NCBI GenBank assembly: GCA_965242535.1
Contig: OZ251458.1
Coordinates: 4,294,525 to 4,358,524 of the forward strand
Reading direction: 5' to 3'
Origin: Candidatus Latescibacterota bacterium
GTDB taxonomy: Bacteria > Latescibacterota > UBA2968
DNA length: 64,000 nt
The notes under the pieces are model-generated. The model saw only the letters and a list, made by a program, of their open reading frames with translations. It had not been told where the DNA came from and searched no databases. Within the stretch, counting starts at the first letter, position 1, and the number at the start of each line of letters is the position of its first letter. The position numbers and the translations under genes are program-made. Of the stretch, positions 7,551 through 58,005 are shown one piece after another.

Positions 7551-7969
7551 CTTATTACTCTGTAAATGAAATGATACCAAATTTTGATACGCACCAACCC
7601 GCACCGACATTGCTCGCTTTTCTAAAGCGTTTGGTCCTATCGCAACGTTAGTTGCCTTTGATGCCTTCGGCGACCTACTTTTTGTCAACAGCAACAAAAA
7701 GTAGGCGAGCGGGGTACAACTGCCCTAGCAGTTCAAAAATGCCGCTCTCATGCGCCGAGGGGCTAGCACAGCGCAAATCGCTTTTGTAATCGCACGACAT
7801 GCGCCAGCCTGCAAAGTGGGTTGCAAAATGGATGTTGGTTGCGAAACGGACTTGCGCGCTGTGCCCGATGGCTTTCGTTGATGAACTTTTGGGATGGCAC
7901 GGGTTGCGATGGCTTCTCTGAAGGACGGTGGAACAGCAAAGCGATCCCGATAATGAATTAGTTGATACA
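7551..7969 (+). repeat. Large structured intergenic element, copy 1 (about 400 bp)
   Basis: Homologous to copies at 22.3, 25.9, 30.1, 47.6 and 57.7 kb; TACCAA-like inverted ends. Confidence 0.9.
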
Positions 7970-8017
7970 AATGGCCTCTCGCCTCTCCCGTCTCCCGTCT
8001 CCCCTCTCACCTGCCTT

Positions 8018-8839
8018 ATGTCCGACATCCTACTCATAGCAACCGCCAGTGCGTACATCGCCAGCGCGTTGGGGTACGCCCTCCACTTTCACCGGCCCAA
8101 AGCCCTGTGGCGCGGGTTGAGCACATGGGGCCTGTGGGCCGGGTGGGGCCTGCACACCGCGTTGTTGGGCGCGATAGCGATGGCCACGGGCGGCATCCCC
8201 TTGACCAATCAGGTCTTGCCCTCTTTGTGCGCGTGGTTGGTCGTGGTCGTTTACGCCTATCTCGAAATGAGTAGCCGAGACCGATCTTTGGGCGCGCTCA
8301 TCGTGCCCATCGTGGTGATCTTGCACCTGTTGACGCTGTCCAAATTGTTCGGCATCGAGCACATCCAAGGCACGGGATACAGCGGCGGGTGGTTCAAACT
8401 CCACGTCTTGGCGTATCTCCTCGCGTACACGGCATTTGCGATTTCCTGCGTCGGAGGCATCATGTACCTCATGCTCTTGGGCGAAATTCAGGCCAAGCAC
8501 TTTGGGTTTTTCTACGGTCGATTGCCGTCTCTCGAAGTGTTGAACCAGATCACCAACCGCGCCGCCACTTTTGGCTTTGTCTTCTTGACGAGTGGGTGCA
8601 TCGCCAGTTCGGTGTGGGCGTTTCAGCATCTCTCGCAGGTCTCGATTTGGCGCGAGCCCGTGTTTTTGCCCGTGCTCATCGCTTGGATCATCTACGCGGG
8701 CAACCTCGCGGCGCGCTTGTGGGGCGGCTGGCAGGGCAAGCGAGCCGCGTTTTTGTCCATCATCGGGTTCGCGCTCGTGGTGCTCGCCTTTCCCGTGGTG
8801 GGCGTTCTCTTTTCCGGCCCCCACAACGTAGGGCCTTGA
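8018..8839 (+). CDS. ccsA: Cytochrome c assembly protein (CcsA/HemX-like)
   Basis: Multiple TM helices; HV..Y, RLPSLEVL, GWQGKRAA; lies upstream of hemA. Confidence 0.85.
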   Translation: MSDILLIATASAYIASALGYALHFHRPKALWRGLSTWGLWAGWGLHTALLGAIAMATGGIPLTNQVLPSLCAWLVVVVYAYLEMSSRDRSLGALIVPIVVILHLLTLSKLFGIEHIQGTGYSGGWFKLHVLAYLLAYTAFAISCVGGIMYLMLLGEIQAKHFGFFYGRLPSLEVLNQITNRAATFGFVFLTSGCIASSVWAFQHLSQVSIWREPVFLPVLIAWIIYAGNLAARLWGGWQGKRAAFLSIIGFALVVLAFPVVGVLFSGPHNVGP

Positions 8840-8841
8840 CC

Positions 8842-9480
8842 ATGCGCTATCCCGTGTTTTTGAACTTGGAGGACAAGCCGTGTGTCGTCATCGGCGCGGG
8901 GCGGATTGCCGAGCGCAGGGTTCGCGGCCTGTGCGATGCAAATGCGCGCGTGAAAGTCGTGGGGATGATCGCGACTCCGGGCATCCTAAATCTGGCGGAC
9001 GCGGGTGCGATTCGCCTGTGCCAACGGGCGTTTGAACCCGCGGATCTCGAGGGCTGCTTTCTCGCCATCGCCGCGACCGACAATGCCTGCGTCAATCGGG
9101 CCGTGCAAAAGGCAGCGCGGCGCCGAGGCGTCTTGTTCTGCGGCGCGGATTCGCGCGCGGACGGCGATTTTACCGTGCCCGCCGTGGCGCGGCGCGGCGC
9201 GTTGCAACTGGCGATCTCCACAGGAGGAGGCAGTCCCGCGTACGCCAAGCTGTTGCGCCGCGAATTGGAACGCTATTTGGAAGAGGGCCACGCGCAGTTG
9301 TTGGACTTGCTGTGCGATTTGCGCCCCAAAGTCCAGGCGCGATTTCCCGACGCGCCAAAGCGTCGAGAAAAGTTTTGGCGAGCGTTGGTCACGGCCGATA
9401 TCCTGACCATGGCGCGAAGGGGTCAATGGGCCGAAATTGAGGAGCGGATAAAAGCATGTCTCTCGTCGTCATTGGACTGA
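8842..9480 (+). CDS. Precorrin-2 dehydrogenase/sirohydrochlorin ferrochelatase (SirC/CysG N-terminal)
   Basis: YPVFLNL, VIGAGRIAERR, AATDN, AISTGGGSP. Confidence 0.92.
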   Translation: MRYPVFLNLEDKPCVVIGAGRIAERRVRGLCDANARVKVVGMIATPGILNLADAGAIRLCQRAFEPADLEGCFLAIAATDNACVNRAVQKAARRRGVLFCGADSRADGDFTVPAVARRGALQLAISTGGGSPAYAKLLRRELERYLEEGHAQLLDLLCDLRPKVQARFPDAPKRREKFWRALVTADILTMARRGQWAEIEERIKACLSSSLD

Positions 9481-10751
9481 GCCATCGCACGGCGCCCGTC
9501 GATATCCGAGAGGGCGTGGCCGTCTTGCCCCATGCATTGGAAGGGGTTTTGCGCCGCTTTTCCGCCGTGCCCGAAATCGCCGAATGCGCGGTTTTATCCA
9601 CTTGCAATCGGTCGGAAGTCTATTGCGTGACGCCGGATATTCAAGCCGCCCGCGATGCCGTGATCGCCGAATGGCGCGACCACAGTGGCTTGAATGCCGA
9701 TGAGCTGTGCCGGCATCTGTTCGTCCATCGAGACGCAGACGTAGCGCGCCATCTGTTTGGCGTGGCATCTGGATTGGATTCGATGGTGATGGGCGAGCCG
9801 CAAATCGCCGCGCAGGTCAAAGAGGCAGGGGCCGCCGCGCTCTCTGTGGGAACGGGCAAAACCGTGCTCAACCGCCTGTTTCGCGCGGCGACCGAGGCAT
9901 CCAAACGGGCGCGCACGGAAACGGAGATCGCGACCGGCGCGGTGTCCATCAGCTTTGCGGCGGTGGAATTGGCAAAGAAAATTTTCGGCGATCTCGACGG
10001 GCAAACGGCCCTCGTGCTCGGCGCGGGCGAAATGAGCGAATTGACCGCGCGACACCTCGCGGACAATGGGGTGAAGTCTTTGTCGGTGACGAGCCGCACC
10101 TTAGCGCGGGCGCGCGACATGGCGATGCGCGTGGGCGGCCGCGCCGTTTCGTGGGATGAGGGCATGGACAATTTGCACCGTGCGGACGTGATCATCAGTT
10201 CCACGAGCGCGGAGACCTATGTTTTGGAACGCCACCACGTCGCGGCGGCGATGCAAAAACGCAAAAACCGCTCGGTGTTTTTGATCGACATCGCCGTGCC
10301 CCGCGACATCAACCCGGCCGTGGGCGATCTGTACAATGTGTTTCTCTACGACCTCGACGATTTGGAATCCGTCGTCGGCGCGAATTTGGAACGGCGAAAA
10401 ACCGAGGCGGAAAAGGTCCGCGCGATTTTGGACGAAGAGGTGATGGCGTTTTCCGCGTGGGTCAATTCCCTCGACGTCGTGCCCGCTATCGTGGCCCTGC
10501 GCCGGCATTTTCAAGCGTTCATGGACGCCGAACTCGCCCATGCCAAGTTGACCGAATTTTCAGACGACCAACGCGCACAAGTCGCCAATGTGGTGCGCCG
10601 GTTCATGAACAAAGTGTTGCACAAACCCGTGATACGCCTCAAAGAGGCAGCCGAAGAAGAAGACGGCGGCGCGTACGTGGCGGCCCTGTCCTACTTGTTC
10701 GATCTCACAGTGAACAAAAAAAAGGGGTGCGGGGATAATGATCATCGGTAG
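9456..10751 (+). CDS. hemA: Glutamyl-tRNA reductase
   Basis: GLSHRTAP, STCNRSE, GLDSMVMGEPQI, GAGEM, DIAVPRDI. Confidence 0.97.
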   Translation: MSLVVIGLSHRTAPVDIREGVAVLPHALEGVLRRFSAVPEIAECAVLSTCNRSEVYCVTPDIQAARDAVIAEWRDHSGLNADELCRHLFVHRDADVARHLFGVASGLDSMVMGEPQIAAQVKEAGAAALSVGTGKTVLNRLFRAATEASKRARTETEIATGAVSISFAAVELAKKIFGDLDGQTALVLGAGEMSELTARHLADNGVKSLSVTSRTLARARDMAMRVGGRAVSWDEGMDNLHRADVIISSTSAETYVLERHHVAAAMQKRKNRSVFLIDIAVPRDINPAVGDLYNVFLYDLDDLESVVGANLERRKTEAEKVRAILDEEVMAFSAWVNSLDVVPAIVALRRHFQAFMDAELAHAKLTEFSDDQRAQVANVVRRFMNKVLHKPVIRLKEAAEEEDGGAYVAALSYLFDLTVNKKKGCGDNDHR

Positions 10752-11640
10752 CCGAGGAAGCGCGCTGGCCCTGTGGCAGGCCAACTGGGCCAAGCGAAAA
10801 TTAGAGGACGCACATCCCGAACTCAAACCCGAAATCGCGGTTATTAAAACGCAGGGGGACCGCCTGTCCGAAACCCCGCTGTCCCAAATCGGCGGCAAAG
10901 AGGTGTGGACCAAAGAAATCGAAAATGCCCTGTTGGCCGGGCGCATCGATCTCGCGGTTCACAGCTTGAAAGACCTGCCCGCGCAGTTGCCCGACGGATT
11001 GGCCCTCGGCGCGATCGGCGCGCGCGAGGATGCGCGAGATGTGTTGGTGAGCAAGCGCGATATAGGGTTTTGGGATTTGCCGGAAGGCGCGGTGCTCGCA
11101 ACGAGCAGTTTGCGGCGGCGAGCACAACTGAGCCATGTACGCCCGGACCTGCGATTCGTGGAAATGCGCGGCAACGTGGATACGCGCCTCAAAAAACTCA
11201 ATGCGGAAAATATAGATGGCATCGTCCTCGCCGCAGCGGGTTTGAATCGCTTGGGATTGGGACATTGCATCACCGAGATTTTCGATCCCGACCTGTGTTT
11301 GCCCGCGCCCGGCCAAGCCGCCCTCGGCATCGAAATACGCGCGGAGGATCGCGAGGTTTCAGATCTGATCGGCGTTTTGAATTGCGTTGAAACGCAGCGC
11401 GCCGTCACCGCAGAACGCACCATGCTTTCGGCCCTGGGCGGTGGCTGCCGCGTCCCCATCGGCGGTTTGGCGACCTGTGAGGCGTCGATGTTGGATCTAT
11501 GCGGAATCGTCGCAGCGCCCGATGGCAGTCAGGTCGTCCTAGCGCAGATGGCGAGTGACGGCGCCCCCGAAGAATTGGGTCTGAGGATTGCACAAGCGTT
11601 GCTCTTCCAAGGCGCGGCAAACTTTTTGGAATTGGAATAA
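10738..11640 (+). CDS. hemC: Hydroxymethylbilane synthase
   Basis: IGSRGSALALWQA, AVHSLKD, TSSLRR, RGNVDTRL, GGGCRVP. Confidence 0.97.
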   Translation: MIIGSRGSALALWQANWAKRKLEDAHPELKPEIAVIKTQGDRLSETPLSQIGGKEVWTKEIENALLAGRIDLAVHSLKDLPAQLPDGLALGAIGAREDARDVLVSKRDIGFWDLPEGAVLATSSLRRRAQLSHVRPDLRFVEMRGNVDTRLKKLNAENIDGIVLAAAGLNRLGLGHCITEIFDPDLCLPAPGQAALGIEIRAEDREVSDLIGVLNCVETQRAVTAERTMLSALGGGCRVPIGGLATCEASMLDLCGIVAAPDGSQVVLAQMASDGAPEELGLRIAQALLFQGAANFLELE

Positions 11641-11700
11641 CGCGGCGATAGCCGATGGACTCCCGCTGTAGAGAAACCATGAGACACAACGGGGTTTGGC

Positions 11701-11785
11701 GTGGACTACGAACTGACGCAACACGCCCGCGAAAATCTCCAAATTCGTCCCAATATCCAAATAGCGCGGATCGAGCGGATCCGTA
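11701..11785 (+). pseudogene. DUF4258-like toxin N-terminal fragment
   Basis: MDYELTQHARENLQIRPNI..; lies upstream of a DUF2283 gene, a typical partner; broken by a palindrome. Confidence 0.5.
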
Positions 11786-11810
11786 AGGGCGTAAAATTTT
11801 ACGCCCTTAC
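11783..11810. repeat. Perfect palindrome GTAAGGGCGTAAAATTTTACGCCCTTAC (also 52404-52431 and 60757-60784)
   Basis: Three identical copies. Confidence 0.9.
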
Positions 11811-11852
11811 GTGCCAAGTCCCAACTGCAACGCAGATCTTGAGAGCTAACTC

Positions 11853-11898
11853 ATGCAAACCGGATGCGTATATCTCGTCGGCGCCGGGCCGGGCGATG
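11853..11898 (+). pseudogene. cobA 5' fragment (MQTGCVYLVGAGPGD)
   Basis: Identical to the start of full-length cobA-hemD at 52366; a third degenerate copy lies at 12133-12189. Confidence 0.85.
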
Positions 11899-11909
11899 AG
11901 GAACCGATT

Positions 11910-12134
11910 ATGAAACTCAAAATTGACGAAGAAGCCGATGCGTTGCATCTGTGCCTGACCGATGGGCCGGCCGTAGAGTCCGAGGAAGTCGCTCCCGGCA
12001 TTATCCTCGATTACGACGCCGACGATCAAGTGATCGGCGTTGAAATTCTGTATCTCTCCAAACGGCATCAGCCCATCAATTTGATGGACATTCAACTCGA
12101 AACGCGGCGAACCAAACTCGCAGAAAGCGCGTAA
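11910..12134 (+). CDS. DUF2283 domain protein (putative antitoxin)
   Basis: MKLKIDEEADALHL...ESEEVAPGIILDYDADDQVIGVEIL. Confidence 0.82.
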   Translation: MKLKIDEEADALHLCLTDGPAVESEEVAPGIILDYDADDQVIGVEILYLSKRHQPINLMDIQLETRRTKLAESA

Positions 12135-12217
12135 GTCCCAACCGCAACGCAGATCTGAGAGCTAACCCATGCCAACCGGATGCGTATATTTGAGGAAATG
12201 AGCGCGACATAAAGCAC

Positions 12218-12256
12218 AAGCCCGAGTTCTTTGCGAACTCGGGCTATTATTTTTTT
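12218..12256. terminator. Intrinsic terminator-like hairpin
   Basis: AGCCCGAGTTC-tttgc-GAACTCGGGCT followed by a T tract; lies between convergent genes. Confidence 0.65.
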
Positions 12257-12322
12257 GAACGGGCTTGTAGAACGTTTAATCCAGTGACCGTATCCCTACG
12301 ATTTTATCTCCCGTCTCCCACC

Positions 12323-13831
12323 CTATCGCTGCTTCGCGTAATTCAATATTCCCCGAAAAATGCGATCGGCATCGGCTTCTCGCTTGTCGTGAAAGCGCAA
12401 GGCAAACGCTTCGCCCGTGTCGTGTACATTGCGTATCTCCACCAGAACTTCTGCATGCGCCGTATTGCTCCGCGACAACACCGCCAGATTGCGCGCCCCA
12501 ATTTGCGAAGTCACGCCCCGCACTTCGAGGGCCTTTTGCATAACCCGCGCAAACGCTCGAGATGGCGAATCGCTTTTGCTCTGCCCCCGGTGAACCCGAT
12601 AAATAACCATAGGCCCTTTTTTGCGGCCGGGGCTGTTGTCCGCATGCAGCGATACGAACAGGGTCTTTCCCGCGCTTGCCCCTCGGAAAAATCGATTGGC
12701 TATTTTGACCCGTTGAATAATATTGCTCAACCCCGGGCGCACTGAAAAACTGTTCTTTCTATTGTAGGCTTCATCGTTATAGACTTCATTTTGCTCGTGT
12801 ACAAATGTCTTTATGGCCGGATTATTGTCTCGGATGAGATGATTCGGACTGACCACCGTCATTTCCACCGCGGCGCCTGCGAATCTCAGCTTTTGGTAGA
12901 GGCGCAACCCGATATCGTACACAAATTCGTCCTCGACCACATAGACCGTTTCGTCGCCCGCTTTATTGGGCACAATCGCGCCCGGATCGCGCCCTCCGTG
13001 CCCCGGGTCGAGCACGATGCGCCATCCTTTTAAGGGCTGTGATTTACGCCCCTCTCGGCGCATTTGCAAATCGATCCCCGCATTGAAACCGCGCAACAAA
13101 TTGATGGCCTTTCGATAATCCTCTATCGGCTTGTTTTTGGATTCTTCCCGATAGTTCCGGCTTCGCTGTGCGGCCGCTTTGGGCTGAAAAAAATAATACG
13201 GGCCATTGGGCGCCGCGATTTCTTTCCCCTGCGTCCGTATCTTTAACTTTTGTCCCACGTAAATGCGATCCGATTTGAGGCCATTGGCGCGTCTGAGTTC
13301 CGATAACCCGATGGCAAACCGCGTGGCGATTTTAGAAAGCGAATCCCCCGATTTTACCACGTATTCCATTTCGCCAAAAGAGGGCTGAACGCGAGTGGGC
13401 GATTGTCGTGCAGAAGCAGCGCGCACGCGGAGGCGTTGACCGGGGCGAATGAGATTCGACGTGAGGCCATTGAGCCGCTTGAGTTCCTCCACGCTCATGG
13501 AAAACCGATCGGCGATTTTCGTCAGCGAGTCTCCTCGTTGCACCACGTATTCCGCATCTCCCGTCGGTGCAGAAGGTGGGCGCGCCTGTGGCCGTTGCCC
13601 AGAAGCAGCGCGCACGCGGAGGCGTTGGCCGGGGCGAATGAGATTCGACGTGAGGCCATTGAGCCGCTTGAGTTCCTCCACGCTCATGGAAAACCGATCG
13701 GCGATTTTCGTCAGCGAATCCCCCGGTTGTACCACGTAAATTTTGGTATGAATTTTTGTCGTAGGCGTCTGCGCGGCGCACGACCACACGAGGCAGGCGA
13801 TCAGCAGAAGGCGGATGTAGTGAAAGATCAT
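12323..13831 (-). CDS. N-acetylmuramoyl-L-alanine amidase with 3 LysM domains, probable lipoprotein
   Basis: LVWSC lipobox-like motif; three YVV..GDSL.KIA LysM repeats; VLDPGHGG.D.GA and SLHAD motifs. Confidence 0.9.
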   Translation of the reverse strand: MIFHYIRLLLIACLVWSCAAQTPTTKIHTKIYVVQPGDSLTKIADRFSMSVEELKRLNGLTSNLIRPGQRLRVRAASGQRPQARPPSAPTGDAEYVVQRGDSLTKIADRFSMSVEELKRLNGLTSNLIRPGQRLRVRAASARQSPTRVQPSFGEMEYVVKSGDSLSKIATRFAIGLSELRRANGLKSDRIYVGQKLKIRTQGKEIAAPNGPYYFFQPKAAAQRSRNYREESKNKPIEDYRKAINLLRGFNAGIDLQMRREGRKSQPLKGWRIVLDPGHGGRDPGAIVPNKAGDETVYVVEDEFVYDIGLRLYQKLRFAGAAVEMTVVSPNHLIRDNNPAIKTFVHEQNEVYNDEAYNRKNSFSVRPGLSNIIQRVKIANRFFRGASAGKTLFVSLHADNSPGRKKGPMVIYRVHRGQSKSDSPSRAFARVMQKALEVRGVTSQIGARNLAVLSRSNTAHAEVLVEIRNVHDTGEAFALRFHDKREADADRIFRGILNYAKQR

Positions 13832-13996
13832 GATACCAGTCCGGAAACAGTTGGAACGAACTTGTGACGAGATGATAAATATATAGACCTTTTGCGCGGA
13901 AAAGACAAGGAATGACTTGCGGTGAAAACCCGTCATCCCGAACGAGGTACAACTGCGTAGCGGTTTATCTACGAAACGGGGCACCGCTGAGTTTGT

Positions 13997-14049
13997 ACTG
14001 ATTTGTGCGTAATCAAAATTGAGAATAACTTAATTTACAGAGTACTAAC
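13997..14049 (-). repeat. Isolated terminus of the large structured element
   Basis: TGATTTG..GCGTA.TCAAAATTGAGAATAAC.TAATTTACAGAGTACTAA matches 22620-22669. Confidence 0.8.
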
Positions 14050-14055
14050 CACTTT

Positions 14056-14092
14056 TGGTCAATCCCGCCAGCACGCATGGCAACATTTGCCA
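14056..14092. promoter_or_regulatory. Two tandem TGG-N9-CCA boxes, putative PspF-type upstream activator sequences
   Basis: TGGTCAATCCCGCCA (14056-70) and TGGCAACATTTGCCA (14078-92); 22-bp periodicity; about 80-110 bp upstream of the sigma54 site. Confidence 0.6.
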
Positions 14093-14168
14093 AATGGATT
14101 TGCTCGTCTCATCGGCACAAAATATCTATATGGTTGAAAAACAAGGCGTAATGCAGAACGCGCAACTT

Positions 14169-14184
14169 TGGCACGCGCCTTGCG
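14169..14184 (+). promoter_or_regulatory. Sigma54 -24/-12 promoter of pspA
   Basis: TGGCACGCGCCTTGCG fits TGGCACG-N4-TTGC with exact GG/GC spacing. Confidence 0.85.
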
Positions 14185-14240
14185 TAAAAAGGGCGTCAGA
14201 TTAAACCCACATTCCCCAAGTCCCACGAAAGGAGCAAAGC

Positions 14241-14918
14241 ATGGCACGCGGAATTTTTTCGAGAATGGCCGACATCCTCAAGGCCAATGTCAACGACCTC
14301 ATCACCCGGGCCGAAGACCCGGAAAAGATGATCCGGCAGATGATCTTGGAAATGGAAGAAGCCGTCAACAAAGCCACGGCCTCGGTCGGCACGGCGGTCG
14401 CCAATGAAAAACGCTTGGAGAGACAACACATCGAAAAGCGAGATCAGATCGAAGCGTGGCAAAACAAGGCCGAATTGGCCGTTGAAGCCGGCGCAGACGA
14501 CCTCGCCCGTCGCGCCCTCGAGCGCAAAGCCGCGACGCAAGAAGCGGCCCGCGACCTCGAAGCGGCTTTGGCGGAAAGCCAAAAGACGTCTGCCCAACTC
14601 AAGCGACAACTCACCCAACTCAAAGCCAAACTCGACGAAGCGCGCACCCGCCAAGGCGCGCTGATTGCCCGCCGGCGCGCCGCCGAAGCCCGCAAGCAAA
14701 TCGCCCAGGGCCTCTCGGGCGTGGGCGACGACGCGTTTTCGAGCTTTGAGCGATTCCGCCAGCGCATCGAATCCGAAGAAGCCGAGGCCGAAGCGCATCA
14801 GGCCATGGCCGACTCCGACCCCTCGCTGGAAGAGGAATTTTCCCGCCTCGAGCGCAAAAATGCGGTTGAAGACGAGCTCAACGCGCTGAAACAGAAACTG
14901 GGGCAAAAAGATGCGTGA
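14241..14918 (+). CDS. pspA: Phage shock protein A (PspA/IM30)
   Basis: GIFSRMADILKANVN..AEDPEKMIRQMILEME; DLARRAL; coiled coil; AAAGGAG RBS. Confidence 0.95.
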   Translation: MARGIFSRMADILKANVNDLITRAEDPEKMIRQMILEMEEAVNKATASVGTAVANEKRLERQHIEKRDQIEAWQNKAELAVEAGADDLARRALERKAATQEAARDLEAALAESQKTSAQLKRQLTQLKAKLDEARTRQGALIARRRAAEARKQIAQGLSGVGDDAFSSFERFRQRIESEEAEAEAHQAMADSDPSLEEEFSRLERKNAVEDELNALKQKLGQKDA

Positions 14919-15561
14919 GCTGGAAAAACTCGCCGACGAAATCGCCCGCAAAATCGACCGTGCGGTCAGCCGGGCCGAACAAAAAGCCAAAACGAGATGG
15001 AAACGGCAATGGGAGGCACGCGCTCACAGCGCGACCCATCCGCTCAAGCGCGTGCCCGACCGCCTCTCCGATCTCGCCACGGATGGGAGTTGTGCTATGC
15101 GTTATCTCTTTGCTTATGGGTTTATCGGCATGGCCGCGATGCAGGGATTTAGCGGTCTCATGCTCGTGCTGTATTCATTGGCGGAACACCGACCTTGGGC
15201 AAATGGCACGACGTCTGCAATGCTCGAACCCGTCAGCATCGGCCTCGTGCTGATGGTCATGGCGCAGGTCACCTATTGGGCAGGCCGCCGAATCAAGCGA
15301 TCCGCAGACGAGAAAGCGCGCGCCAAAAATCAGAATCGCATCCTGCGTCTCGCCCGGGAAAAAGGGGGCAGTCTCACGGTGATAGAAGCGGCGACAGAGA
15401 GCAAAATCACGGTGGAAAAAACCGAGGAAATCCTGCGCGAATTGGTCTTGAGCGGTTACGCGGAAATGCGAATCTCCGAATCGGGGCTGGTCGTGTACCA
15501 CTTCTTGGAAATCGAACGCTGGAATGAAAAGCACTGGGCGCGGCCCGTGGATGAACTTTAA
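14911..15561 (+). CDS. Membrane protein with 2 TM and a C-terminal winged-helix-like domain
   Basis: Overlaps pspA; ILRLAREKGGSLT...ISESGLVVYHF C-terminal domain. Confidence 0.7.
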   Translation: MRELEKLADEIARKIDRAVSRAEQKAKTRWKRQWEARAHSATHPLKRVPDRLSDLATDGSCAMRYLFAYGFIGMAAMQGFSGLMLVLYSLAEHRPWANGTTSAMLEPVSIGLVLMVMAQVTYWAGRRIKRSADEKARAKNQNRILRLAREKGGSLTVIEAATESKITVEKTEEILRELVLSGYAEMRISESGLVVYHFLEIERWNEKHWARPVDEL

Positions 15562-15587
15562 TCGCCGGCAGGAGGGAGGGCAAAACC

Positions 15588-15785
15588 ATGTTTGAAATTG
15601 GCATCATGGTCGCGATCATCATTCTCGCATCTGCGGTACACAAATACGTCGAGCGACGCACCAAAGGCTCTATTCCCAGCGACGCGGAAGCGCGCCTGTC
15701 CGCGAGAATGGACGAACTCGAGCGCAGGTTGACGGACATTCAGGACGTCATGATCGCCATCGACGAAAAACTCAGCGCCAAATAA
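15588..15785 (+). CDS. Small PspB-like protein (1 TM + coiled coil)
   Basis: GGAGG RBS; RMDELERRLTDIQDVM. Confidence 0.65.
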   Translation: MFEIGIMVAIIILASAVHKYVERRTKGSIPSDAEARLSARMDELERRLTDIQDVMIAIDEKLSAK

Positions 15786-15796
15786 GGGAGGACGAC

Positions 15797-16141
15797 ATGC
15801 GTATCTTTTTTGTGATCATCACCGGCATCAGCTTGCTTATTCTCGCGTGCGGCACGATTGCCTACGTTCTCGACGGGCCGACATTTGGCGGCGGTTGCAT
15901 CTTGGTGGCCGCTTGGGCCGCGCTGACGGTTCTCGCCATTGTCATCGTCGACGAAGGCAAATCGCACGCACGCCGAGGAACGAAACATGCAGATTCGGAA
16001 GAACAGGCCAAACGCCTGACAGAATGCGAGGGACGCCTCAGAGACCTTCAAGACATCGCGCTTGCCAACGATGAGAAGATCGAGCGTCTCGAACGAGAAA
16101 CCCTCGTCACGCCAATCCAACCGCAGACCATTCGGGATTAA
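15797..16141 (+). CDS. Membrane protein with PspB-like C-terminal coiled coil
   Basis: 2 TM helices; RLTECEGRLRDLQDIALANDEK is paralogous to the preceding ORF; GGAGG RBS. Confidence 0.6.
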   Translation: MRIFFVIITGISLLILACGTIAYVLDGPTFGGGCILVAAWAALTVLAIVIVDEGKSHARRGTKHADSEEQAKRLTECEGRLRDLQDIALANDEKIERLERETLVTPIQPQTIRD

Positions 16142-16156
16142 CGGAAAGGACATTCC

Positions 16157-16315
16157 ATGTTCGCAAAACTCATCGGCCTCGTGCTCATCGTCATCGGCGG
16201 CATTATCTTCTTCAAGGTTCTCTTTCCGCTCATCAGCTCTCTCCTTCTCTGGCTCCAACTCGCCCTTGCCATCGGCTTCATCGCGGTCGGCTATCGGTTG
16301 ATCCAGCGGGATTGA
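16157..16315 (+). CDS. 52-aa two-TM small membrane protein (not in ORF track)
   Basis: MFAKLIGLVLIVIGGIIFFKVLFPLISSLLLWLQLALAIGFIAVGYRLIQRD; AAAGGA RBS. Confidence 0.65.
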   Translation: MFAKLIGLVLIVIGGIIFFKVLFPLISSLLLWLQLALAIGFIAVGYRLIQRD

Positions 16316-16405
16316 GGGGGACGGAGCGAGTTGTCAGCCCACCTTGACCCCATTCGTTGTCGCGACGGGCCCAGTGCCCGTCAGTTGTCATAGAGGAGGT
16401 TCAAC

Positions 16406-17611
16406 GTGAAAAATCGAGATGGTACACCCGTTCGCAGGCTCGCGCGGTTTCCGCGATGGGGCCTCGGCGTTTTGATGGTGGCAACGCTCATGGGTTGCCA
16501 GATGCAGATGGTCGATGGGCATGCCGAGTCCAAGGTGTACGATTTGAGCGGTTTTACCGGGGTGCGTGCCAGCGTTGCGGTCGATGTCGAGTTCGCGCAG
16601 GGCGATTCGTTCGGCGTGGTGGCCCATGCCGAGTACGGGGATTTCAGCGGTTTGGAGATCGAGGTGGCGGATGGCGTGCTCATCGCTACGCGGCCCGAAG
16701 AGGTGTGGAAGCGCAAAAGTGTTTCGGTCCGGCTCAGAGGTGATCGGCGCGTTGTCGAGATAGACGGCAAGCGCGTGCCCGCGTACACCGTGCGCGTCAC
16801 AGCACCCCGCATTGCGTATCTCGGCGCGTCTGTCAGCAGCAAGGTCACGGCAAAGGGGATCGAAACCGAAAAACTCGCCATCCATGCGTCGTCCGTTGCG
16901 GATGTCGACGCCGAAGTCACCGGTGGCGATGTGTCCGTGGATGCGAGCAGCAATGGGGATGTGACCGTGTCCGGGACTTATGACAAATTGAAAATCGAGG
17001 CGAATAGCAGCGCGGATGTGACCGCGTCCGGAACGTGCGACAAATTGGATATTAACGCGAGCAGCAACGCGGCTGTGAAAGCCGATGGCTTGACCTGTCA
17101 GCACGGCGATTTGCGTGCGTCGTCCGCTGCGAATATCGAGGCCAAAGTTTCCGGCGGCGATGTGTCCGTAGATGCGAGCAGCAGTGGCGATGTGTCCGTG
17201 TCCGGAACGTGCGGCGATTTGGACGTCGAGGCGAATAGCAGCGCGGCTGTGAAAGCCGATGACCTGACCTGTCAGCGCGGCAAATTTCGGGCGTCGTCCG
17301 CTGCGGATATCGAGGCCAAAGTTTCCGGCGGCGATGTGTCCGTAGATGCGAACAGCAGTGGCGATGTGACCTTGTCTGGAACGTGCGACAAATTGGATAT
17401 TAACGCGAGTAGCAGCGCGGCTGTGAAAGCCGATGGCCTGACCTGTCAGCGTGGCGACTTGCGGGCGACCAGTGGGGCCGATGTCGCCGTGCGGTTGACG
17501 GAGACCGTCACAGCCCATGCTAGTTTTGGCGGCGATATCGCGGTCCGCGGCGGTGCGACGCCCGTGAAGGTGAAAGAGTTGAGCGGCGGCGATGTTTCGA
17601 TTCGGGATTGA
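16406..17611 (+). CDS. DUF2807/GIN beta-helix lipoprotein with expanded 60-aa repeats
   Basis: LMGC lipobox-like motif; YDLSGFTGV; repeated ASSSGDV..SGTC..L...A.S.A.V.A..L. Confidence 0.8.
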   Translation: MKNRDGTPVRRLARFPRWGLGVLMVATLMGCQMQMVDGHAESKVYDLSGFTGVRASVAVDVEFAQGDSFGVVAHAEYGDFSGLEIEVADGVLIATRPEEVWKRKSVSVRLRGDRRVVEIDGKRVPAYTVRVTAPRIAYLGASVSSKVTAKGIETEKLAIHASSVADVDAEVTGGDVSVDASSNGDVTVSGTYDKLKIEANSSADVTASGTCDKLDINASSNAAVKADGLTCQHGDLRASSAANIEAKVSGGDVSVDASSSGDVSVSGTCGDLDVEANSSAAVKADDLTCQRGKFRASSAADIEAKVSGGDVSVDANSSGDVTLSGTCDKLDINASSSAAVKADGLTCQRGDLRATSGADVAVRLTETVTAHASFGGDIAVRGGATPVKVKELSGGDVSIRD

Positions 17612-17678
17612 TGTGTAGCGGTCCGTTCCCCAACCGCACGGCCCCAAGCGGTCAGTCTCCCCACCCCATCAACTCGCC

Positions 17679-17704
17679 GTAGGGACAGGCCCCCGTGCCT
17701 GTCC
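17679..17704 (+). repeat. GTAG-type REP GTAGGGACAGGCCCCCGTGCCTGTCC
   Basis: Copies at 6209, 20724(-), 24138(-), 24236(-), 40936(-), 60182, 60565 and 60651; partial copies at 39282 and 55183. Confidence 0.85.
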
Positions 17705-17829
17705 TCGCAGTCAGCAACCCGTTCCCCAACCGCCCATCCGCGTTTCGTCACTCCGGCATGGCCGTAGCCAACGCCGAAGTCCAGCGACTTTTGTCTTTCT
17801 TCTTTTTTCTCTTAACCAACGGAGACGCG

Positions 17830-18408: not shown

Positions 18409-18485
18409 TAAATACCCGTTGCGTTTCAGTGTTTGGACATACATATTTGGGATGCGGGCGTACAATGGATTTTAAGGAGGTCGCG

Positions 18486-19067: not shown

Positions 19068-19081
19068 CCACGGGAGGGGCT

Positions 19082-20662: not shown

Positions 20663-20852
20663 GCGTCTCCCGTCTTGCCTCTTCCGTCTGTGGCGGTGTG
20701 GCCTTCTCCCGTCTTGTATCTTCGGACAGGCACGGGGGCCTGTCCCTACGATTGCGATTGCGTCTCCCGTCTTCCCTCTCCCCTTGTATCTTTGGGGGTA
20801 AGGATTGCATCTCTACGGTTTCGCTTCTCGATTTTGAGGTGGCGGGGGGTGG

Positions 20853-21023: not shown

Positions 21024-21026
21024 CAA

Positions 21027-47556: not shown

Positions 47557-48024
47557 CTAAGTATTCCAAAAATTAAATGATACCAAATTTTGATACACAC
47601 AAATCAGCACCTGAATGACTCGCTTTTCTAACAACTTTGGTCCTACAGCATCGTGGGTTGCCTCCGATGCGTTGGCTACGCCTGTGCCTACGGCGTGCGG
47701 CGACCTACTTTTTTTCAACAGCAAAAAAAAGTAGGCGAGCGGGGTACAACTGCCCGAGCAGTTCAAAAATGCCGCTCTCATGCGCCGAGGGGCTAGCACA
47801 GCGCGAGCGGGGTACAACTGCCCCAGCAGTTCAATCGCTTTTGTAGTAGTACGACATGCGTCGGCCTGCAAGGTGGGTTGCAAAATGGATGTGGGTTGCG
47901 AGACGGACTTACGCGCTGTGCCTGACGGCTTTCGTTGATGAACTTTTGGGATGGCACTTTGGCGATGGCTTCTTTGAAGGACGGTGGAACGGCAAAGCGA
48001 TCCCGATAATGAATGAGTTGGTCA
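47557..48024 (+). repeat. Large structured element, copy 5 (longest, with three insertion modules)
   Basis: Homologous to copy 1 over its full length. Confidence 0.9.
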
Positions 48025-48030
48025 AATGCC

Positions 48031-50869: not shown

Positions 50870-52366
50870 CTACTGCGCTTCGATGGCCTGCACCAAGGCG
50901 GAAATGGACGCCGATGACGCGGGGAGTTCCACGACCACGTCGAATCCATGTGCGGCTGCGGTTTGTGCCGTGATGGGGCCGATGCACGCGGCGCGCAAGC
51001 GTTCTCTGCCGGTTTGTCGCAGGGCATCGCCGAGCAAGTCTATGAGATTGGCGACTGTGGATGAACTCGTAAAGGTGATCAAGTCGATCTCATCCCGGGC
51101 GAGATGTTGCAAAAATTCAGCGGGCAAACCATCGGGCCGCACGGTTTTATAGACGATCACTTCGCGGACTTGGCCCCCGCGCTGGCGAATCCCCTCGCCG
51201 AGCACATCGCGGGATTTTTCGGGCCGGGGCAACAAAAATCGCCGCGAGGAGAGATCGCTGCCGAGCGCGTCGAGCAAGCCTTCGGAGGTGCGGTCAACCG
51301 CTTCGAGATCCACATCGAGATGCCATGCGCGCACTCGGGCCGAAGTCGCCGCGCCGACGCTCGCGATTTTTATCTTTTCCAACGCGCGCAGGTCGCGGCC
51401 CTGCTGAAACAAACGCCCGAAAAAGCGATCCGTTGCATTTGCACTCGTCAATATGAGCCAATCGCACGCATGCAGTTCTGCTATGGCGCGATCCACATCG
51501 CGCCAATCCTCGGGTTCGGCAAATGCAATGGTCGGCACTTCGATGACCCACGCGCCCAATGCCCGCAACTCGCGTGTCAAGTCACTCGCCTGAATACGCG
51601 CCCTCGTCACGGCGATCCGCCGTCCAAACAGGGGCTTGGACGCAAACCAATCCAAGTCCATCGCCGCGACTTTGCCTATGACGATCACCGCGGGGTTGGT
51701 CATTTCGACATCGCCCATTTTCGCCAGCGTGGTTCGCACGGTGCGTTGCGCGGGCAACGATCCCCATTGAATAGCCGCGACGGGCGTGTCGCCCGCCCGC
51801 CCCCCCGCGATGAGGCGGCGGGCAATTTCACCGCGTTTGCGCGTGCCCATCAAAATGAGGAGCGTGCCCCCCACTTTTGCCAGCCCTTCCCAATCGACTT
51901 CCCCGTGGCCTTTGAGTGAGGCGGTCGTCCCGGTGACTATCGTCACATGGGGGGAGATGCCCCTGTGCGTGGCGGGGATGCCGGCATAGGCGGGCGCGGC
52001 AATGGCACTCGTAACCCCCGGCACGATCTCAAACGGAATGTCGCGTTCTTTCAACGCCTCGGCTTCCTCGCCCCCGCGGCCAAACACCATCGGGTCGCCC
52101 CCTTTTAAGCGCACGACGCGCAAGCCCTTTTTGGCGCGGTCGATCATGAGATGGTCGATTTCCGCTTGTTGCACGCGCTGATACCCCGGGCGTTTTTCCA
52201 CGTTGATGCACTCGCACTTCGGGGATGCGTCCTGCAATAACGCGGGATTCGCCAACCCGTCATACAGGATCACATCCGCCTCTCGGATGAGGCGCAAGCC
52301 CTTCACGGTGAGCAATTCCACATCGCCCGGCCCGGCGCCGACGAGATATACGCATCCGGTTTGCAT
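50870..52366 (-). CDS. cobA: Uroporphyrinogen-III C-methyltransferase / uroporphyrinogen-III synthase fusion (CobA-HemD)
   Basis: VYLVGAGPGD, RLKGGDP.VFGRGGEE, PLFGRRIAVTR, FTSSSTV, CIGP.T. Confidence 0.96.
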   Translation of the reverse strand: MQTGCVYLVGAGPGDVELLTVKGLRLIREADVILYDGLANPALLQDASPKCECINVEKRPGYQRVQQAEIDHLMIDRAKKGLRVVRLKGGDPMVFGRGGEEAEALKERDIPFEIVPGVTSAIAAPAYAGIPATHRGISPHVTIVTGTTASLKGHGEVDWEGLAKVGGTLLILMGTRKRGEIARRLIAGGRAGDTPVAAIQWGSLPAQRTVRTTLAKMGDVEMTNPAVIVIGKVAAMDLDWFASKPLFGRRIAVTRARIQASDLTRELRALGAWVIEVPTIAFAEPEDWRDVDRAIAELHACDWLILTSANATDRFFGRLFQQGRDLRALEKIKIASVGAATSARVRAWHLDVDLEAVDRTSEGLLDALGSDLSSRRFLLPRPEKSRDVLGEGIRQRGGQVREVIVYKTVRPDGLPAEFLQHLARDEIDLITFTSSSTVANLIDLLGDALRQTGRERLRAACIGPITAQTAAAHGFDVVVELPASSASISALVQAIEAQ

Positions 52367-52514
52367 GAGTTAGCTCTTCAGAGTTGCGGTTGGGACTTGA
52401 CATGTAAGGGCGTAAAATTTTACGCCCTTACGGATCACGCGCTATTTGGATTTGGGACGAATTTGGAGATTTTCGCGGGCGCGTTGCGTCAGTTCGTAGT
52501 CCACGCCAAATCCC
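52316..52514 (-). repeat. About 200-bp repeat, copy B (inverted relative to 11691-11903)
   Basis: Roughly 90% identical by eye; the last about 55 bp are identical. Confidence 0.9.
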
Positions 52515-54116: not shown

Positions 54117-55079
54117 ATGGAGGGACGTGTGCAAATCGTGGTGCCGGGCGATGATCCCGTGCAGATCGCGGGGTCGCCCCATCTCGAGAAATTGGCGCCT
54201 TACGGCGATGTGGTGCTCTACGATACGCGGCCCGCGTCATCGGCAGAGAAAATCGCCCGGGTGCGAGACGCCGATGTGATCGTGAACACGCGCGGCGCAG
54301 TCACATGGGGCGAGGCCGAGTTTTCCCACTTGCCCAAGTTGAAGATGATCGCGACCTGTTCGATCGGCACGGACATGTTCGATTTGGACGCCGCAAAAGC
54401 GCGGGGGATTGCGATTTGCAACCAGCCGGGCAGAACCGCGCCCGTGGTGGCCGAACACATTTTCGGGCTGATGTTCGCGGTGGCAAAACGCGCGGCGTAT
54501 TTTACCGCAGCGATGAAAAACGGGGGCTGGCCTCGGCTGGACAACGCGATGCTCCAGGGCAAGACATTGGGGATCATCGGCGCGGGCAATACCGGGGCGG
54601 AGATGGCGCGCCTCGCGCGGGCCATTGGCATGGACGTGACCGCGTGGACCTTTCACCCATCCGTTGAACGAGGCGAACGACTCGGCGTGCGATTCGTGGA
54701 ATGGGACGCGCTGCTCGAAACCGCGGATGTGATCAGTTTGCACGTCGCGCTGACAGAGGATACCGAAGGGTTGATCGGAAAGGCCGAGTTGGCGAAGATG
54801 AAAAAGGGCGCGTTGTTGCTAAACGGCGCGCGCGGCGCGATCGTCGATACGGCCGCGCTCGCAGACGCGCTAAATCGCGGGCATATCGGCGGGGCGGGCA
54901 TCGATGTGTACGAGGATGAACCCCCGCCATCGGATCATCCCCTGTTTGCGTGCGAACAAGTGGTGCTCACCCCGCATTGCGCGGACATGACCCCCGAAGG
55001 CGTGGATTTGCTCAACAGCGGCGCGGTGGAAAATGTGATCGCATTTTTGGAAGGCAGAACGCAAAATGCGGTGGGGTGA
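54117..55079 (+). CDS. D-2-hydroxyacid dehydrogenase
   Basis: GKTLGIIGAGNTG, DVISLH, N.ARG, GIDVYEDEP, TPH. Confidence 0.92.
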   Translation: MEGRVQIVVPGDDPVQIAGSPHLEKLAPYGDVVLYDTRPASSAEKIARVRDADVIVNTRGAVTWGEAEFSHLPKLKMIATCSIGTDMFDLDAAKARGIAICNQPGRTAPVVAEHIFGLMFAVAKRAAYFTAAMKNGGWPRLDNAMLQGKTLGIIGAGNTGAEMARLARAIGMDVTAWTFHPSVERGERLGVRFVEWDALLETADVISLHVALTEDTEGLIGKAELAKMKKGALLLNGARGAIVDTAALADALNRGHIGGAGIDVYEDEPPPSDHPLFACEQVVLTPHCADMTPEGVDLLNSGAVENVIAFLEGRTQNAVG

Positions 55080-55084
55080 GGCGG

Positions 55085-55178
55085 GGAGACGGGAGAGGCG
55101 AGAGGCGAGAGGCGAGAGGCGAGAGGCGAGAGGCGAGAGGCGAGAGGCGAGAGGCGAGAGGCGAGAGGCGAGAGGCGA
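55085..55178. repeat. Heptamer array (GAGAGGC) x12
   Basis: 12 perfect units at 55093-55176, followed by a partial REP. Confidence 0.95.
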
Positions 55179-55203
55179 GCTAGTAGGGACAGGCCCTTCG
55201 CAT

Positions 55204-56289: not shown

Positions 56290-56518
56290 GGATTTCCTTT
56301 GAAAAGAATACCGATAGACTACGGGGGGTTGGCGTTTGCCCGTTCCGTATCGCATCGAGAGTTGCGTGTGAATTTTGGATACCAACCCCGTCGTTCAGAA
56401 AAAGGGTTAGCGAATCACAAAATGGCTTTGCGTTTGGAATATACCATTTACCCGCTTGGGAACAATGAAAAGTTCTCCTTTCTAAACGGAATGAAAGCGG
56501 TTGCTGAGGTGATCTCCC

Positions 56519-57523
56519 ATGAACTATTCAATTTCAGAAATCAAAGCGGCATTGGGAACGTGCAGCCGATTGTCGCTGGCCGATTTGCCCACGCCGTTGA
56601 CCGAGTGTGCGCGGTTGGCAAAGACCTTGGGCGGGCCGCGTCTGTTGGTCAAGCGCGAGGATCAAACCGGCTTGGCGTTTGGGGGCAACAAGGTGCGCGA
56701 GTTCGAGTATTCGGTCGCGCCCGCTGTGGATGAGGGGTATGACGTGTTGTTGCACGGCGCGGCGTCGCAGTCGAATCAATCGCGGCTGACCGCAGCGGTT
56801 GCGGCTAAATTGGGCATGAAAGCGGTGATGGTCGGGCGCAAGGACGATCGTGCAACCCCGGTGAATGGCAATTTATTGCTCGCGCATCTGTTCGGCGCGA
56901 CCGTGCATCTGATCGAGCGCGAAGAGGAAAAAGAAGCCGTCATCGCAAACTTAAAAGCCGAGGGGCACAAGGTCTATAACACGAGCTCGGACGGGTATTA
57001 CTACCGCAGCGTCTCGTATGTGGATGGGTTTTTGGAATTGTGGGAACAGGTGCGGGCATTGGATGTGCGCCCCGATGCGATCTATGTCTGCGCGGGTGTG
57101 CATACGCATGTCGGGCTGGCGGTCGGCGCGAAAGCCTTGGGCGTGGACGTGCGGATTGTCGGCATCAGCCCAAGCCCACAGGACGATGCGGCGAAGAATG
57201 TGCAACTCGCGGACGTGGCAAATGAGGTGTGCAACATTCTGAAATTGGACGTGCATTTTACAGCGCGGGATTTTGAGAGCTGCGGCGAGTACGCAGGCCC
57301 TGCTTACGGCGTATTGACGCCCGAGGCGCGAGAGGCGGTTTTGATCGCCGCGCAAACCGAGGGATTGTTGCTCGACCCGGTTTATGCGGGCAAGACATTT
57401 GGCGCGCTGATCGATCACATCCGCGCGGGGTGGTACGCCGAGGATCAAACCGTGGTCTTCGTCCATACGGGCGGCACGCCTGCGCTGTTCGCGTATGGCG
57501 ATGAATTGCTGGCCGGTGGTTAG
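56519..57523 (+). CDS. PLP-dependent D-cysteine desulfhydrase/ACC deaminase family protein
   Basis: PTPL, KRED.TG..GGNKVR, EGLLLDPVY.GK, VHTGG. Confidence 0.85.
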   Translation: MNYSISEIKAALGTCSRLSLADLPTPLTECARLAKTLGGPRLLVKREDQTGLAFGGNKVREFEYSVAPAVDEGYDVLLHGAASQSNQSRLTAAVAAKLGMKAVMVGRKDDRATPVNGNLLLAHLFGATVHLIEREEEKEAVIANLKAEGHKVYNTSSDGYYYRSVSYVDGFLELWEQVRALDVRPDAIYVCAGVHTHVGLAVGAKALGVDVRIVGISPSPQDDAAKNVQLADVANEVCNILKLDVHFTARDFESCGEYAGPAYGVLTPEAREAVLIAAQTEGLLLDPVYAGKTFGALIDHIRAGWYAEDQTVVFVHTGGTPALFAYGDELLAGG

Positions 57524-57741
57524 GAATCAGACCGCACGCATGTGCGTTGTCCCAATCTCCAATCCCGTTAGCCAAAGGCAAAAGGCGAGAACGACGAAAA
57601 ATGGGATCACAGGGACGGTGCTCCCGTGCCTCGCCCAAAGATGTAATGCTAAATTGATTTTCTGTTGACCGGCTGTGATGCAATATGCGACCTGCAAATG
57701 ATCTCCTTGCCGTTACACAGTACGTCAAATAAGCCCTGACA

Positions 57742-58005
57742 AAATGCCATCCCCAAAGACCATCAGCTAAAGCCATCACGCACAGCGCGCAAGTCCGTCT
57801 CGCAACGCACTTTTATTTTTTACCCACCTTGCAGGCCGACGCATGTCGTTCTGTTACAAAAGCGCTTTGCGCTGTGCCTAGCCCCTCGGCGTTTGAGAGC
57901 GGCATTTTTTGCCTACTTTTTTTTGCTGTTGAAAAAAAGTAGGTCGCCGAAGGCATCAAAGGCAACCCACGATGCTTTAGAGCCAAATGCTTGAAACAAG
58001 CAACG
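57742..58005 (-). repeat. Large structured element, copy 6
   Basis: Core GCACAGCGCGCAAGTCC...GCGCTGTGCCTAGCCCCTCGGCG...CCTACTTTT..AAAAGTAGGTCGCCGAAGGCATC. Confidence 0.88.

Follow-up and report, generated by a model that had tools for sequence, protein, structure and literature searches.

A dispersed repeat in a Candidatus Latescibacterota genome is a likely composite transposon with IS4-type ends and a conserved, probably structured cargo

Results

The DNA analysed here (the window) is a stretch of 64,000 nucleotides from a Candidatus Latescibacterota bacterium (G000:C1:4294525-4358524); G000 is the genome holding the window, a single 4.95-Mb contig of 57% G+C. Dispersed between its genes is a repeat of about 400 bp. 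An earlier note, made from the sequence alone, had described six copies and one free end. Consensus matching placed all seven sites in one repeat family, with coordinates within ~40 bases of those first given (Table 1), and a search of the window for direct and inverted repeats independently recovered the same repeat pairs. We consider the repeat very likely to be a composite non-autonomous transposon, that is, a cassette-like MITE (miniature inverted-repeat transposable element) with a shell of IS4-type ends around an older cargo of four helices.

A blastn search of the genome with window positions 7531-7990 as the query gave 405 high-scoring segment pairs, merging to 346 loci (190 on the plus strand and 156 on the minus strand). 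The loci are distributed all round the chromosome on both strands, in line with the hundreds per genome that had been extrapolated from the window. An alignment of 57 near-full copies shorter than 430 bp, drawn from the 90 loci that reach both ends, yielded a 406-nt consensus. Of the 279 loci that measure 250 bp or more, not one falls within a gene, as called crudely by a longest-open-reading-frame heuristic with no annotation, and the copies are intergenic as the note had said. Its statement that no conserved open reading frame (ORF) exists held as well: the longest open frame of the consensus, on the minus strand, has no start codon, and its copy 1 version has no Pfam match. A small core ORF (MPLSCAEGLAQRKSLL) was rejected because it falls in an alignment gap in ~75 copies and carries amino-acid-changing polymorphisms.

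Similarity among the aligned copies breaks off sharply at both ends. The element ends are 5'-CATYTGTACCAACT...AGTTGGTACARATG-3', with terminal inverted repeats of ~17 bp (5'-CATYTGTACCAACTAAWT ... AKTTAGTTGGTACARATG-3'). These termini replace the TACCAA-like motifs inside a TTA(G/T)TACTCTGTAAAT shell that had been proposed; the inner GATACCAAATTTTGAT motif of that proposal is the terminal repeat of the element version in a sister species (G017) and not a terminus in G000. Ends and duplications were counted on the 84 elements in which both terminal repeats are present, at a distance of 300-650 bp. A C precedes ATYTGTACCAACT (ATYTG) in 82 of these and a G follows the inverted copy (CARAT) in 83, so that the element reads 5'-CAT...ATG-3'. 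The 10-base flanks on the two sides are identical in 23/84 elements and match at nine of ten positions in 17/84. Mean flank identity was 6.98 of 10 bases; shuffling of the partners gave 5.41 +/- 0.18, and a register shift of one base or more gave no more than 4.74. The peak at shift 0 indicates a target duplication of 10 bp.

The usual target is the centre of a palindrome resembling repetitive extragenic palindromic (REP) sequences, GGACAG-GCACGGGGGC-CTGTCC, which may be oriented either way. Of the 84 two-ended elements, 64 lie between both palindrome arms and 75 beside at least one, compared to both arms at 9 of 5000 random positions. The REP-like palindrome (GTAGGGACAGGCCCCCGTGCCTGTCC) has 661 uninterrupted copies in the genome (at most two mismatches), several of them in the window. 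Perfect duplications were also found at non-palindromic targets, such as GCACGATGGT and GGACGAGGGC.

The note had suggested a comparison with empty sites in relatives, and this was made at the copy 1 site only. In the sister species G001 the element is missing and the genes on either side are neighbours, 46 bp separating the flanks; the element is also absent from G006. At this site G011, the closest relative (flanks 91-93% identical), carries an IS110-type gene and lacks the module, and G017 has its own version of the element. The site has thus been hit independently. Contigs of four public DNA runs over window positions 7000-26999 stop at repeat borders, and no clean empty-site joint was seen in them.

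A scan for the terminal repeats beyond the 400-bp copies found one 1.4-kb element at genome positions 1857011-1858436, outside the window. With its CAT and ATG bases it spans 1857010-1858437 (1,428 bp); it has the same ends and the same duplication length as the MITE and is flanked by a perfect 10-bp duplication, CCCTCTCCCG. Its single ORF (435-462 aa) scores 64.2 bits against Pfam PF01609 (DDE_Tnp_1; cut-off 23) and 127.2 bits against NF033592, the NCBIfam equivalog for IS4 (cut-off 115), and the translation YARRWDIEMAFAWVK agrees with Y(2)R(3)E(6)K. According to PMC2266710, the hallmarks of the IS4 family are this signature, one ORF only and a duplication close to a helical turn in length. 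CAT ends and a 10-bp duplication fit the IS231/ISH8 subgroups (10-12 bp; Table 1 of PMC2266710), a fit of ends and length only. Judged by its predicted protein and ends, the 1,428-bp partner is an IS4-family insertion sequence (IS) with a putative DDE transposase.

Position 14 differs between the two ends of the partner (A vs C), and the MITE ends mirror the same difference. In a genome-wide blastn, the partner matched itself and three fragments only, and the MITE interior was not matched. Because nothing but the ends is common to the two, the MITE is cassette-like and not a deletion derivative of the partner. The 1,428-bp element is the likely transposase source for the MITE. Its DDE transposase would bind the shared ends in trans and cut and paste the ~400-bp element with staggered cuts 10 bp apart; insertion would be aimed at the palindrome centre, so that the 10-nt centre is duplicated. 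The cargo bracketed by the IS4-type shell is not a deleted transposase gene. That this particular transposase mobilises the MITE in trans is what we infer.

The repeat has the characters of a bacterial MITE: a length below ~600 bp, no transposase gene, terminal inverted repeats, a fixed duplication, ends shared with another element and an empty site. The non-autonomous mobile element proposed in the note is supported by the terminal repeats, the 10-bp duplications, the IS4-family partner ends, the target preference and the empty site; no Y1 or reverse transcriptase gene was linked to the copies. Weighing against the composite transposon, transposition itself was not observed, only one intact partner is present beside its three fragments, and the left terminal repeat is intact in none of the window copies.

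The best relative of the partner transposase (75% amino-acid identity) is in a Candidatus Latescibacterota metagenome-assembled genome (MAG). Relatives at 65-70% identity, in many copies, are in MAGs labelled Dehalococcoidia, Binatia, Poribacteria and Chloroflexota. The occurrence of such close relatives (65-75%) in several phyla suggests that the insertion sequence was transferred between phyla.

The ends enclose a module of ~190-250 nt that contains four helices, P1-P4 (Table 1). Two of the stems named in the note are among these, its long stem being P4 and its A/T hairpin P2. The inner hairpin that it also named, AGCCTGC-AAA-GTGGGTT, is present in the apical part of P4, a part whose conservation is absent in other species. 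GTGATGG repeats occupy the position in other genera that matches the GATGG tail of copy 1, and the tail could offer a protein an array of binding sites, on RNA or DNA.

The module also carries optional inserts. A mini-insert of 28-38 nt (GAGCGGGGTACAACTG...CAGTTC) is found at two module sites, after GTAGGC or CAGCGC and always before an A run; it is present in window copies 1 and 5 and at loci L013 and L117, and it behaves like a tiny insertion in its own right. A second optional insert, AGAAGACGCGATTGAGCGTCTGAAG, lies in the P2 loop of some copies. The P2 loop is also where a second IS4-family element, 1,198 bp long (G000:C1:616692-617889, inside L002), preferentially inserts; this element has 25 more full copies in the genome and none in the window. 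It ends in the terminal repeat CCATACTACGCGACAAAA, has an ORF with a 242-bit match to NF033591 and makes 7-bp duplications. Fifteen of the 26 full copies lie in the MITE P2 loop in both orientations, with TCAACAG or TCTACAG duplicated, and one more lies in a variant loop.

Table 1. Positions of the repeat copies, the cargo parts and other repeats in the window
Feature	Position	Strand	Details
Copy 1	7550-7973	+	Consensus 11-406; left terminal repeat degenerate; right end ...AGTTGATACAAATG at 7960-7973
Copy 1, P1 short hairpin	7662-7672	+	UGCC-UUC-GGCG; first conserved cargo element; model match 7662-7780; P1 sequence UGCCUUCGGCG
Copy 1, P2 A/T-rich hairpin	7674-7705	+	CCTACTTTTTGT-loop-ACAAAAAGTAGG; 10/12 pairs with compensatory changes
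Copy 1, optional 28-nt hairpin mini-insert	7707-7734	+	GAGCGGGGTACAACTG...CAGTTC; most copies without it
Copy 1, P3 hairpin	7744-7763	+	CTCTC / GAGGG; 5/5 pairs covary; U-G frequent
Copy 1, P4 long stem	7766-7864	+	Outer helix GCACAGCGC / GCGCTGTGC; second helix G-U-rich; apical part variable
Copy 1, 3' tail	7868-7930	+	GATGG three or four times at ~12-14-nt spacing; read from sequences, no statistic
Isolated left-end fragment	14000-14044	-	Consensus 17-60
Copy 2	22319-22666	-	Consensus 17-362; P1-P3 module 22467-22559
Copy 3	25932-26307	-	Consensus match 25933-26306 = 58-406; CAT...ATG ends; consensus 4-57 deleted
Copy 3, P1-P3 module	26125-26224	-	Covariance model match
Copy 3, target duplication	26317-26308; 25931-25922		GCACGGGGGC / GCACGGGGGT; reads GCACGGGGGC, CAT...ATG, GCACGGGGGT
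Copy 4	30139-30317	-	30139-30298 and 30292-30317 = consensus 247-406 and 66-91; internal deletion; without P1-P3
Copy 5	47557-48028	+	Consensus 12-406; left terminal repeat lost; right end GTTGGTCAAATG
Copy 5, P1-P3 module	47685-47810	+	Copy 5 carries two 28-nt mini-inserts, 47737-47764 and 47805-47832
Copy 6	57700-58001	-	Consensus 77-380; cargo alone, without IS4-type ends; P1-P3 module 57863-57955
REP-like palindromes	6208-6245; 17678-17715; 20713-20753; 24127-24167; 24224-24264; 40925-40965; 60181-60218; 60564-60601; 60650-60687
Heptamer arrays	3938-4009; 7975-8012; 20825-21036; 44134-44195; 55069-55200		Target of IS110-type element
Repeat round palindrome CGTAAGGGCGTAAAATTTTACGCCCTTACG	11691-11903; 52316-52514; 60756-60789; 2566-2599		52316-52514 inverted
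Tandem repeats of 186-189, 174 and 66 nt	13262-13738; 16885-17518; 19694-19957		Inside long ORFs
Tandem duplication	63173-63496		Unit of ~155-166 nt

Blastn with one window copy matched all 20 other species of the genus and gave one short match in 20 genomes of seven other genera. The sister species G017 carries an element of ~450-500 bp with a different terminal inverted repeat, ATACCAAWTTGATTTT (207 matches vs 0 for a control pattern), and in G000 the ATACCAAWTTGATTTT motif persists internally, just inside the IS4-type end. At 20 loci from 14 other species the central part alone is common. A covariance model of P1-P3 (R1, 92 positions) was run on 31 genomes of the family, G000 included, and matched 26 of them. 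With G000 set aside, the matches per genus are 20/20 in the window's genus (g1), 3/3 in g9, 1/1 in g4, 1/1 in g5, 0/3 in g3 and 0/2 in g2, so that 5 of the 10 genomes from five other genera (three of them positive) have the module, with other or no recognisable ends. The number of matches per genome in g1 is 1-12 in 18 species, 88 in G011 and at least 138 each in G000 and G017, where all candidates that were scored matched; outside g1 it is 52-103 in g9, 49 in g4 and 4 in g5. Present across the genus and in three other genera with other or no ends, the cargo is older and more widespread than the IS4-type shell.

Two candidate pairs were examined for an autonomous partner of the G017-type ends, and neither contains a transposase. 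At L176 (G000:C1:392702-394186), a PhyH-type dioxygenase gene lies between inverted ATACCAAWTTGATTTT matches, with one mismatch each, 1,285 bp apart; this may be a cassette with a protein-coding passenger.

Covariation in P1-P3 was measured on an alignment to the model (alignment A4) of 63 distinct sequences, which represent four genera. Paired cells made up 96.7%, compared to 86.8% in shuffled alignments, and 19/24 pairs were changed on both sides, compared to 7.4 +/- 1.3. The covariation score was 0.283, compared to 0.114 shuffled and at most 0.075 with slid partners. Ten of the 12 pairs of P2 are doubly changed, one of them occurring as U-A in 30, C-G in 26 and A-U in 6 sequences, and so are all five pairs of P3. 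P4 was assessed on a MAFFT alignment of 26 sequences with the pairs given by hand. Its outer helix is 99% paired, and 5/8 pairs are swapped on both sides between GCACAGCGC/GCGCTGTGC (17 rows) and GATTTTCCGC/GCGGAAAATC (9 rows); in the second helix, G-U occurs in 5 of 10 consensus pairs. G-U cells, which pair on the plus strand only, outnumber A-C cells, which would be G-U on the minus strand, by 113:19 in P1-P3 and by 77:21 in P4. The claim that the G-U pairs work on one strand only is thus borne out by the comparative counts, the sole place where the strand asymmetry is visible; the folding energies are not strand-specific. The folding z-score of a whole copy is -1.9 on the plus and -3.3 on the minus strand, and that of the long stem is -2.2 and -2.0. 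P2 alone stands out, at -4.5 and -3.3.

The selection on a single-stranded fold that had been suspected is supported by the G-U excess and by compensatory changes in three helices across genera. Where the note had named missing covariation, a described RNA family or confinement to this region as grounds for giving up its proposal, we found covariation, no Rfam match and copies genome-wide. From the sequence comparisons, it seems probable that the module is structured and selected as a single strand.

Several observations weigh against this reading. Folding of single sequences barely beats shuffles, and does so alike on both strands. Alignment A4 was fitted to the model's own structure, so that its pairing counts are inflated, and the relatives among its rows are not independent. 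The swap in the outer helix of P4 may be a single evolutionary event; the register of the second helix fits genus g1 only (70.7% paired overall), and RNAalifold on P4 returned the outer helix with no consistent inner structure. Of the 113 G-U cells in P1-P3, 61 come from one nearly invariant U-G pair in P1, and the remainder is 52:19. With respect to an RNA gene, Rfam 15 gave no match at the gathering score over the window and none at E up to 10 over 7500-8030, and copy 1 lacks a sigma-70-type promoter and a terminator, although the promoters of the phylum may differ. None of 22 sequencing runs listed was an RNA run. A terminator-like hairpin follows the plus strand end at 15/55 loci of other species, compared to 7/55 in a mirror control. 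Several of the 15 are orthologous, the good ones being common to orthologous loci of four species and of two species, and this excess downstream of the module is a hint and no more.

Orientation is likewise without bias. Among G000 copies with tandem neighbours, 74 are co-oriented and 81 opposed, and at 37 loci in other species the downstream gene is on the plus strand 17 times and on the minus strand 17 times; GC skew and gene-strand bias reveal no replichores in G000. These counts also bear on the proposal that the module regulates the downstream gene in cis, as a leader or riboswitch. In G008, 7/8 copies do point toward the next gene, but the genes concerned are unrelated (MacB/FtsX, DruA, HNH, PhyH, HisG, LD-carboxypeptidase), and some copies are followed by a terminator and then by a separate promoter-like site. 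With the even orientation counts, a leader is hardly credible. The neighbours that recur at 38 module loci are sulfatases (7), MR/MLE enzymes (4) and PhyH (3), and not mobility genes.

We also considered a single-stranded DNA transposon remnant of the IS200/IS605-PATE or REPIN kind, in which the hairpins would be recognition sites of an HUH/Y1 enzyme and the IS4-type ends a secondary vehicle. Such a remnant would have strand-asymmetric hairpins that tolerate G-T, as here, and hairpin covariation is what co-evolution with a structure-reading enzyme would produce. The module is indifferent to gene orientation, and other genera show a sharp start of conservation at P1 with no visible terminal repeat. 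However, Y1_Tnp has two matches in G000, of which the only strong one is an IS200-type gene flanked by unrelated hairpins, and no Y1 gene was seen beside a copy. No conserved short target was found 5' of P1 at 22 loci inspected by eye, and the terminal repeats and 10-bp duplications in G000 are not made by HUH transposition. We regard this origin as unlikely. A guide-RNA module of TnpB, IS110 or reverse transcriptase elements was rejected, no matching protein gene being linked: RVT_1 has no match in the genome, TnpB-type matches (PF07282) do not adjoin copies by coordinate comparison, and the 18 IS110-type genes adjoin some copies only through their targeting of neighbouring heptamer arrays.

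Variation within the family gives a further view of the core. Near-full copies (n=243) are 80-95% identical to the consensus (median 90%). Differences among them are mostly shared polymorphisms combined in mosaic fashion, and private variants are rare. Private variants per 1000 cells amount to 2.13 in the left arm and 2.09 in the right arm, compared to 0.71 in core A and 1.03 in core B, and variants found in 2-5 copies to 12.65 and 11.07 in the arms, compared to 1.88 and 0.41 in cores A and B. Private variants are thus ~3-fold rarer in the core (22/28,779 cells) than in the arms (86/40,746; odds ratio 0.36, p = 5e-6), and those common to 2-5 copies 6-30-fold rarer. Because private variants are rare and depleted in the core, we conclude that the core is under constraint and that the family is either young or homogenised. 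Element-level selection can explain why shared variants are so few there, as copies with a damaged core would not spread; such selection needs no host benefit, so that selection on resident copies is supported only in part. Some constraint on resident copies too is suggested by the 3-fold lack of private variants, a point that we regard as not settled.

These data could be those of an ordinary selfish MITE with a functionless fold and incidental hairpins, its core conserved through recent descent from a few masters. A private divergence of only ~0.2% per copy points to a young or homogenised family, the ~10% distance to the consensus is mostly shared subfamily polymorphism, the folding z-scores are weak and orientation bias is absent. 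Recency within one genome nevertheless leaves the compensatory changes between genera unexplained (19/24 pairs in P1-P3 and 5/8 in outer P4), and neither the persistence of the same module with different ends nor the 3-fold private-variant deficit in the core is accounted for. An ordinary selfish MITE therefore seems to us quite improbable.

Discussion

The fold may well act as RNA read from the plus strand, a reading that we favour over single-stranded DNA and hold with somewhat less than even confidence; action as single-stranded DNA is rather unlikely. Still more tentatively, the module could belong to an undescribed class of structured non-coding RNA, or of elements acting as a single strand, in a Latescibacterota family, and would then be the unit of selection, borrowing whichever transposase ends are available (IS4-type in G000, others in a sister species). 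Its conserved unpaired motifs (GCAAAU, GGCCUAC/GGCCUGC, ACGGAAU/GGGAAU) and the GAUGG repeats would in that case be protein or ligand contact sites.

Bacterial MITEs include Correia/NEMIS, ERIC, RUP and Nezha. The repeat resembles them in being small, non-coding, intergenic and high in copy number, and in having terminal inverted repeats, duplications and the ends of a resident insertion sequence. In contrast, its interior is not a deletion derivative of a parent element, its fold is an internal four-helix module rather than a pairing of both ends, and the interior is more conserved than the ends, with other ends in the sister species. A literature search that excluded subscription journals and closed supplements found no publication on a Latescibacter miniature inverted-repeat element.

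The cargo of mobile insertion cassettes (MICs) is protein-coding. Compared to MIC231, the cargo here is a non-coding structured module with no conserved ORF, in hundreds of copies rather than few. The likeness lies in IS4-family ends that bracket foreign cargo and in trans mobilisation, as described for the IS231-MIC231 cassettes of the Bacillus cereus group in PMC2266710, and in the CAT termini and ~10-bp duplication that its Table 1 gives for the IS231/ISH8 subgroups. The element works like a MIC and is not one in the strict sense.

Published insertion sequences that target REP sequences are mostly of the IS3, IS110 and related families. Here a DDE element of the IS4 family duplicates the exact 10-nt centre of a palindrome, and a second IS4-family element duplicates 7 bp in the MITE's own P2 loop. 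Insertion aimed at a repeated extragenic palindrome is what is shared with the REP-targeting elements of PMC1525189, and for ISPpu9 PMC12288879 describes a small-RNA gene module with extra solo copies in the genome. Like REPIN/RAYT systems (PMC3116915, PMC3333891), the modules are long-lived, vertically persistent, structured intergenic repeats with covarying hairpins. They differ in that no RAYT-like gene was found beside the module and that terminal repeats and target duplications accompany the copies in G000.

As a mobile element the repeat is of an ordinary kind, and what is notable is its cargo. MITE interiors are usually treated as irrelevant decay, whereas here the interior is the conserved part, with helices kept by compensatory changes across at least four genera while the ends recognised by transposases were swapped. 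If the module acts as RNA, it would be a new and abundant class of non-coding RNA of an uncultured phylum, and a clear bacterial example of DNA transposition multiplying a structured RNA gene to hundreds of copies. If it is the selected unit, it would be a bacterial counterpart of the short interspersed nuclear elements (SINEs) derived from RNA genes, spread by DNA transposition. Whether or not the module has a function, repeat-aimed insertion is defined by sequence in three cases, the IS4-family element at the REP-like palindrome (10 bp), the second IS4-family element at the P2 loop (7 bp) and the IS110-type element at heptamer arrays, and these provide models, open to test, for the reading of palindromic targets by DDE transposases. 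The layers of repeats also account for the breaks that short-read assemblies of these genomes show here.

Other repeats

Arrays of a 7-nt repeat (CCGTCTY or CGAGAGG and variants), up to ~30 units long, lie beside palindromes and MITE ends. An IS110-family element of ~1.3 kb (PF01548; 18 copies, for example G000:C1:4283221-4284535, with L115 of G011 at the copy 1 orthologue) inserts in these arrays at ...CCTCT, TGTATCTTTCGAGCG...GAGAGTATCT, CCCGTCT. It is often found beside MITE copies because the heptamer arrays adjoin palindromes. The left end of this IS110-type element (TGTATCTTTCGAGCG) is similar to the sequence 5' of the REP-like palindrome (TTGTATCTTCGGACAGG), and the two may be related.

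Another dispersed repeat surrounds the palindrome CGTAAGGGCGTAAAATTTTACGCCCTTACG. Its two longest copies in the window are 92-97% complementary over ~200 nt, and it is probably a second MITE-like family. The tandem repeats inside long ORFs are probably protein repeat domains. Near the right end of the window, the unit duplicated in tandem (96% and 87% identity) contains a hairpin, CCCCCTTTCCTGATAGGAAAGGGGG.

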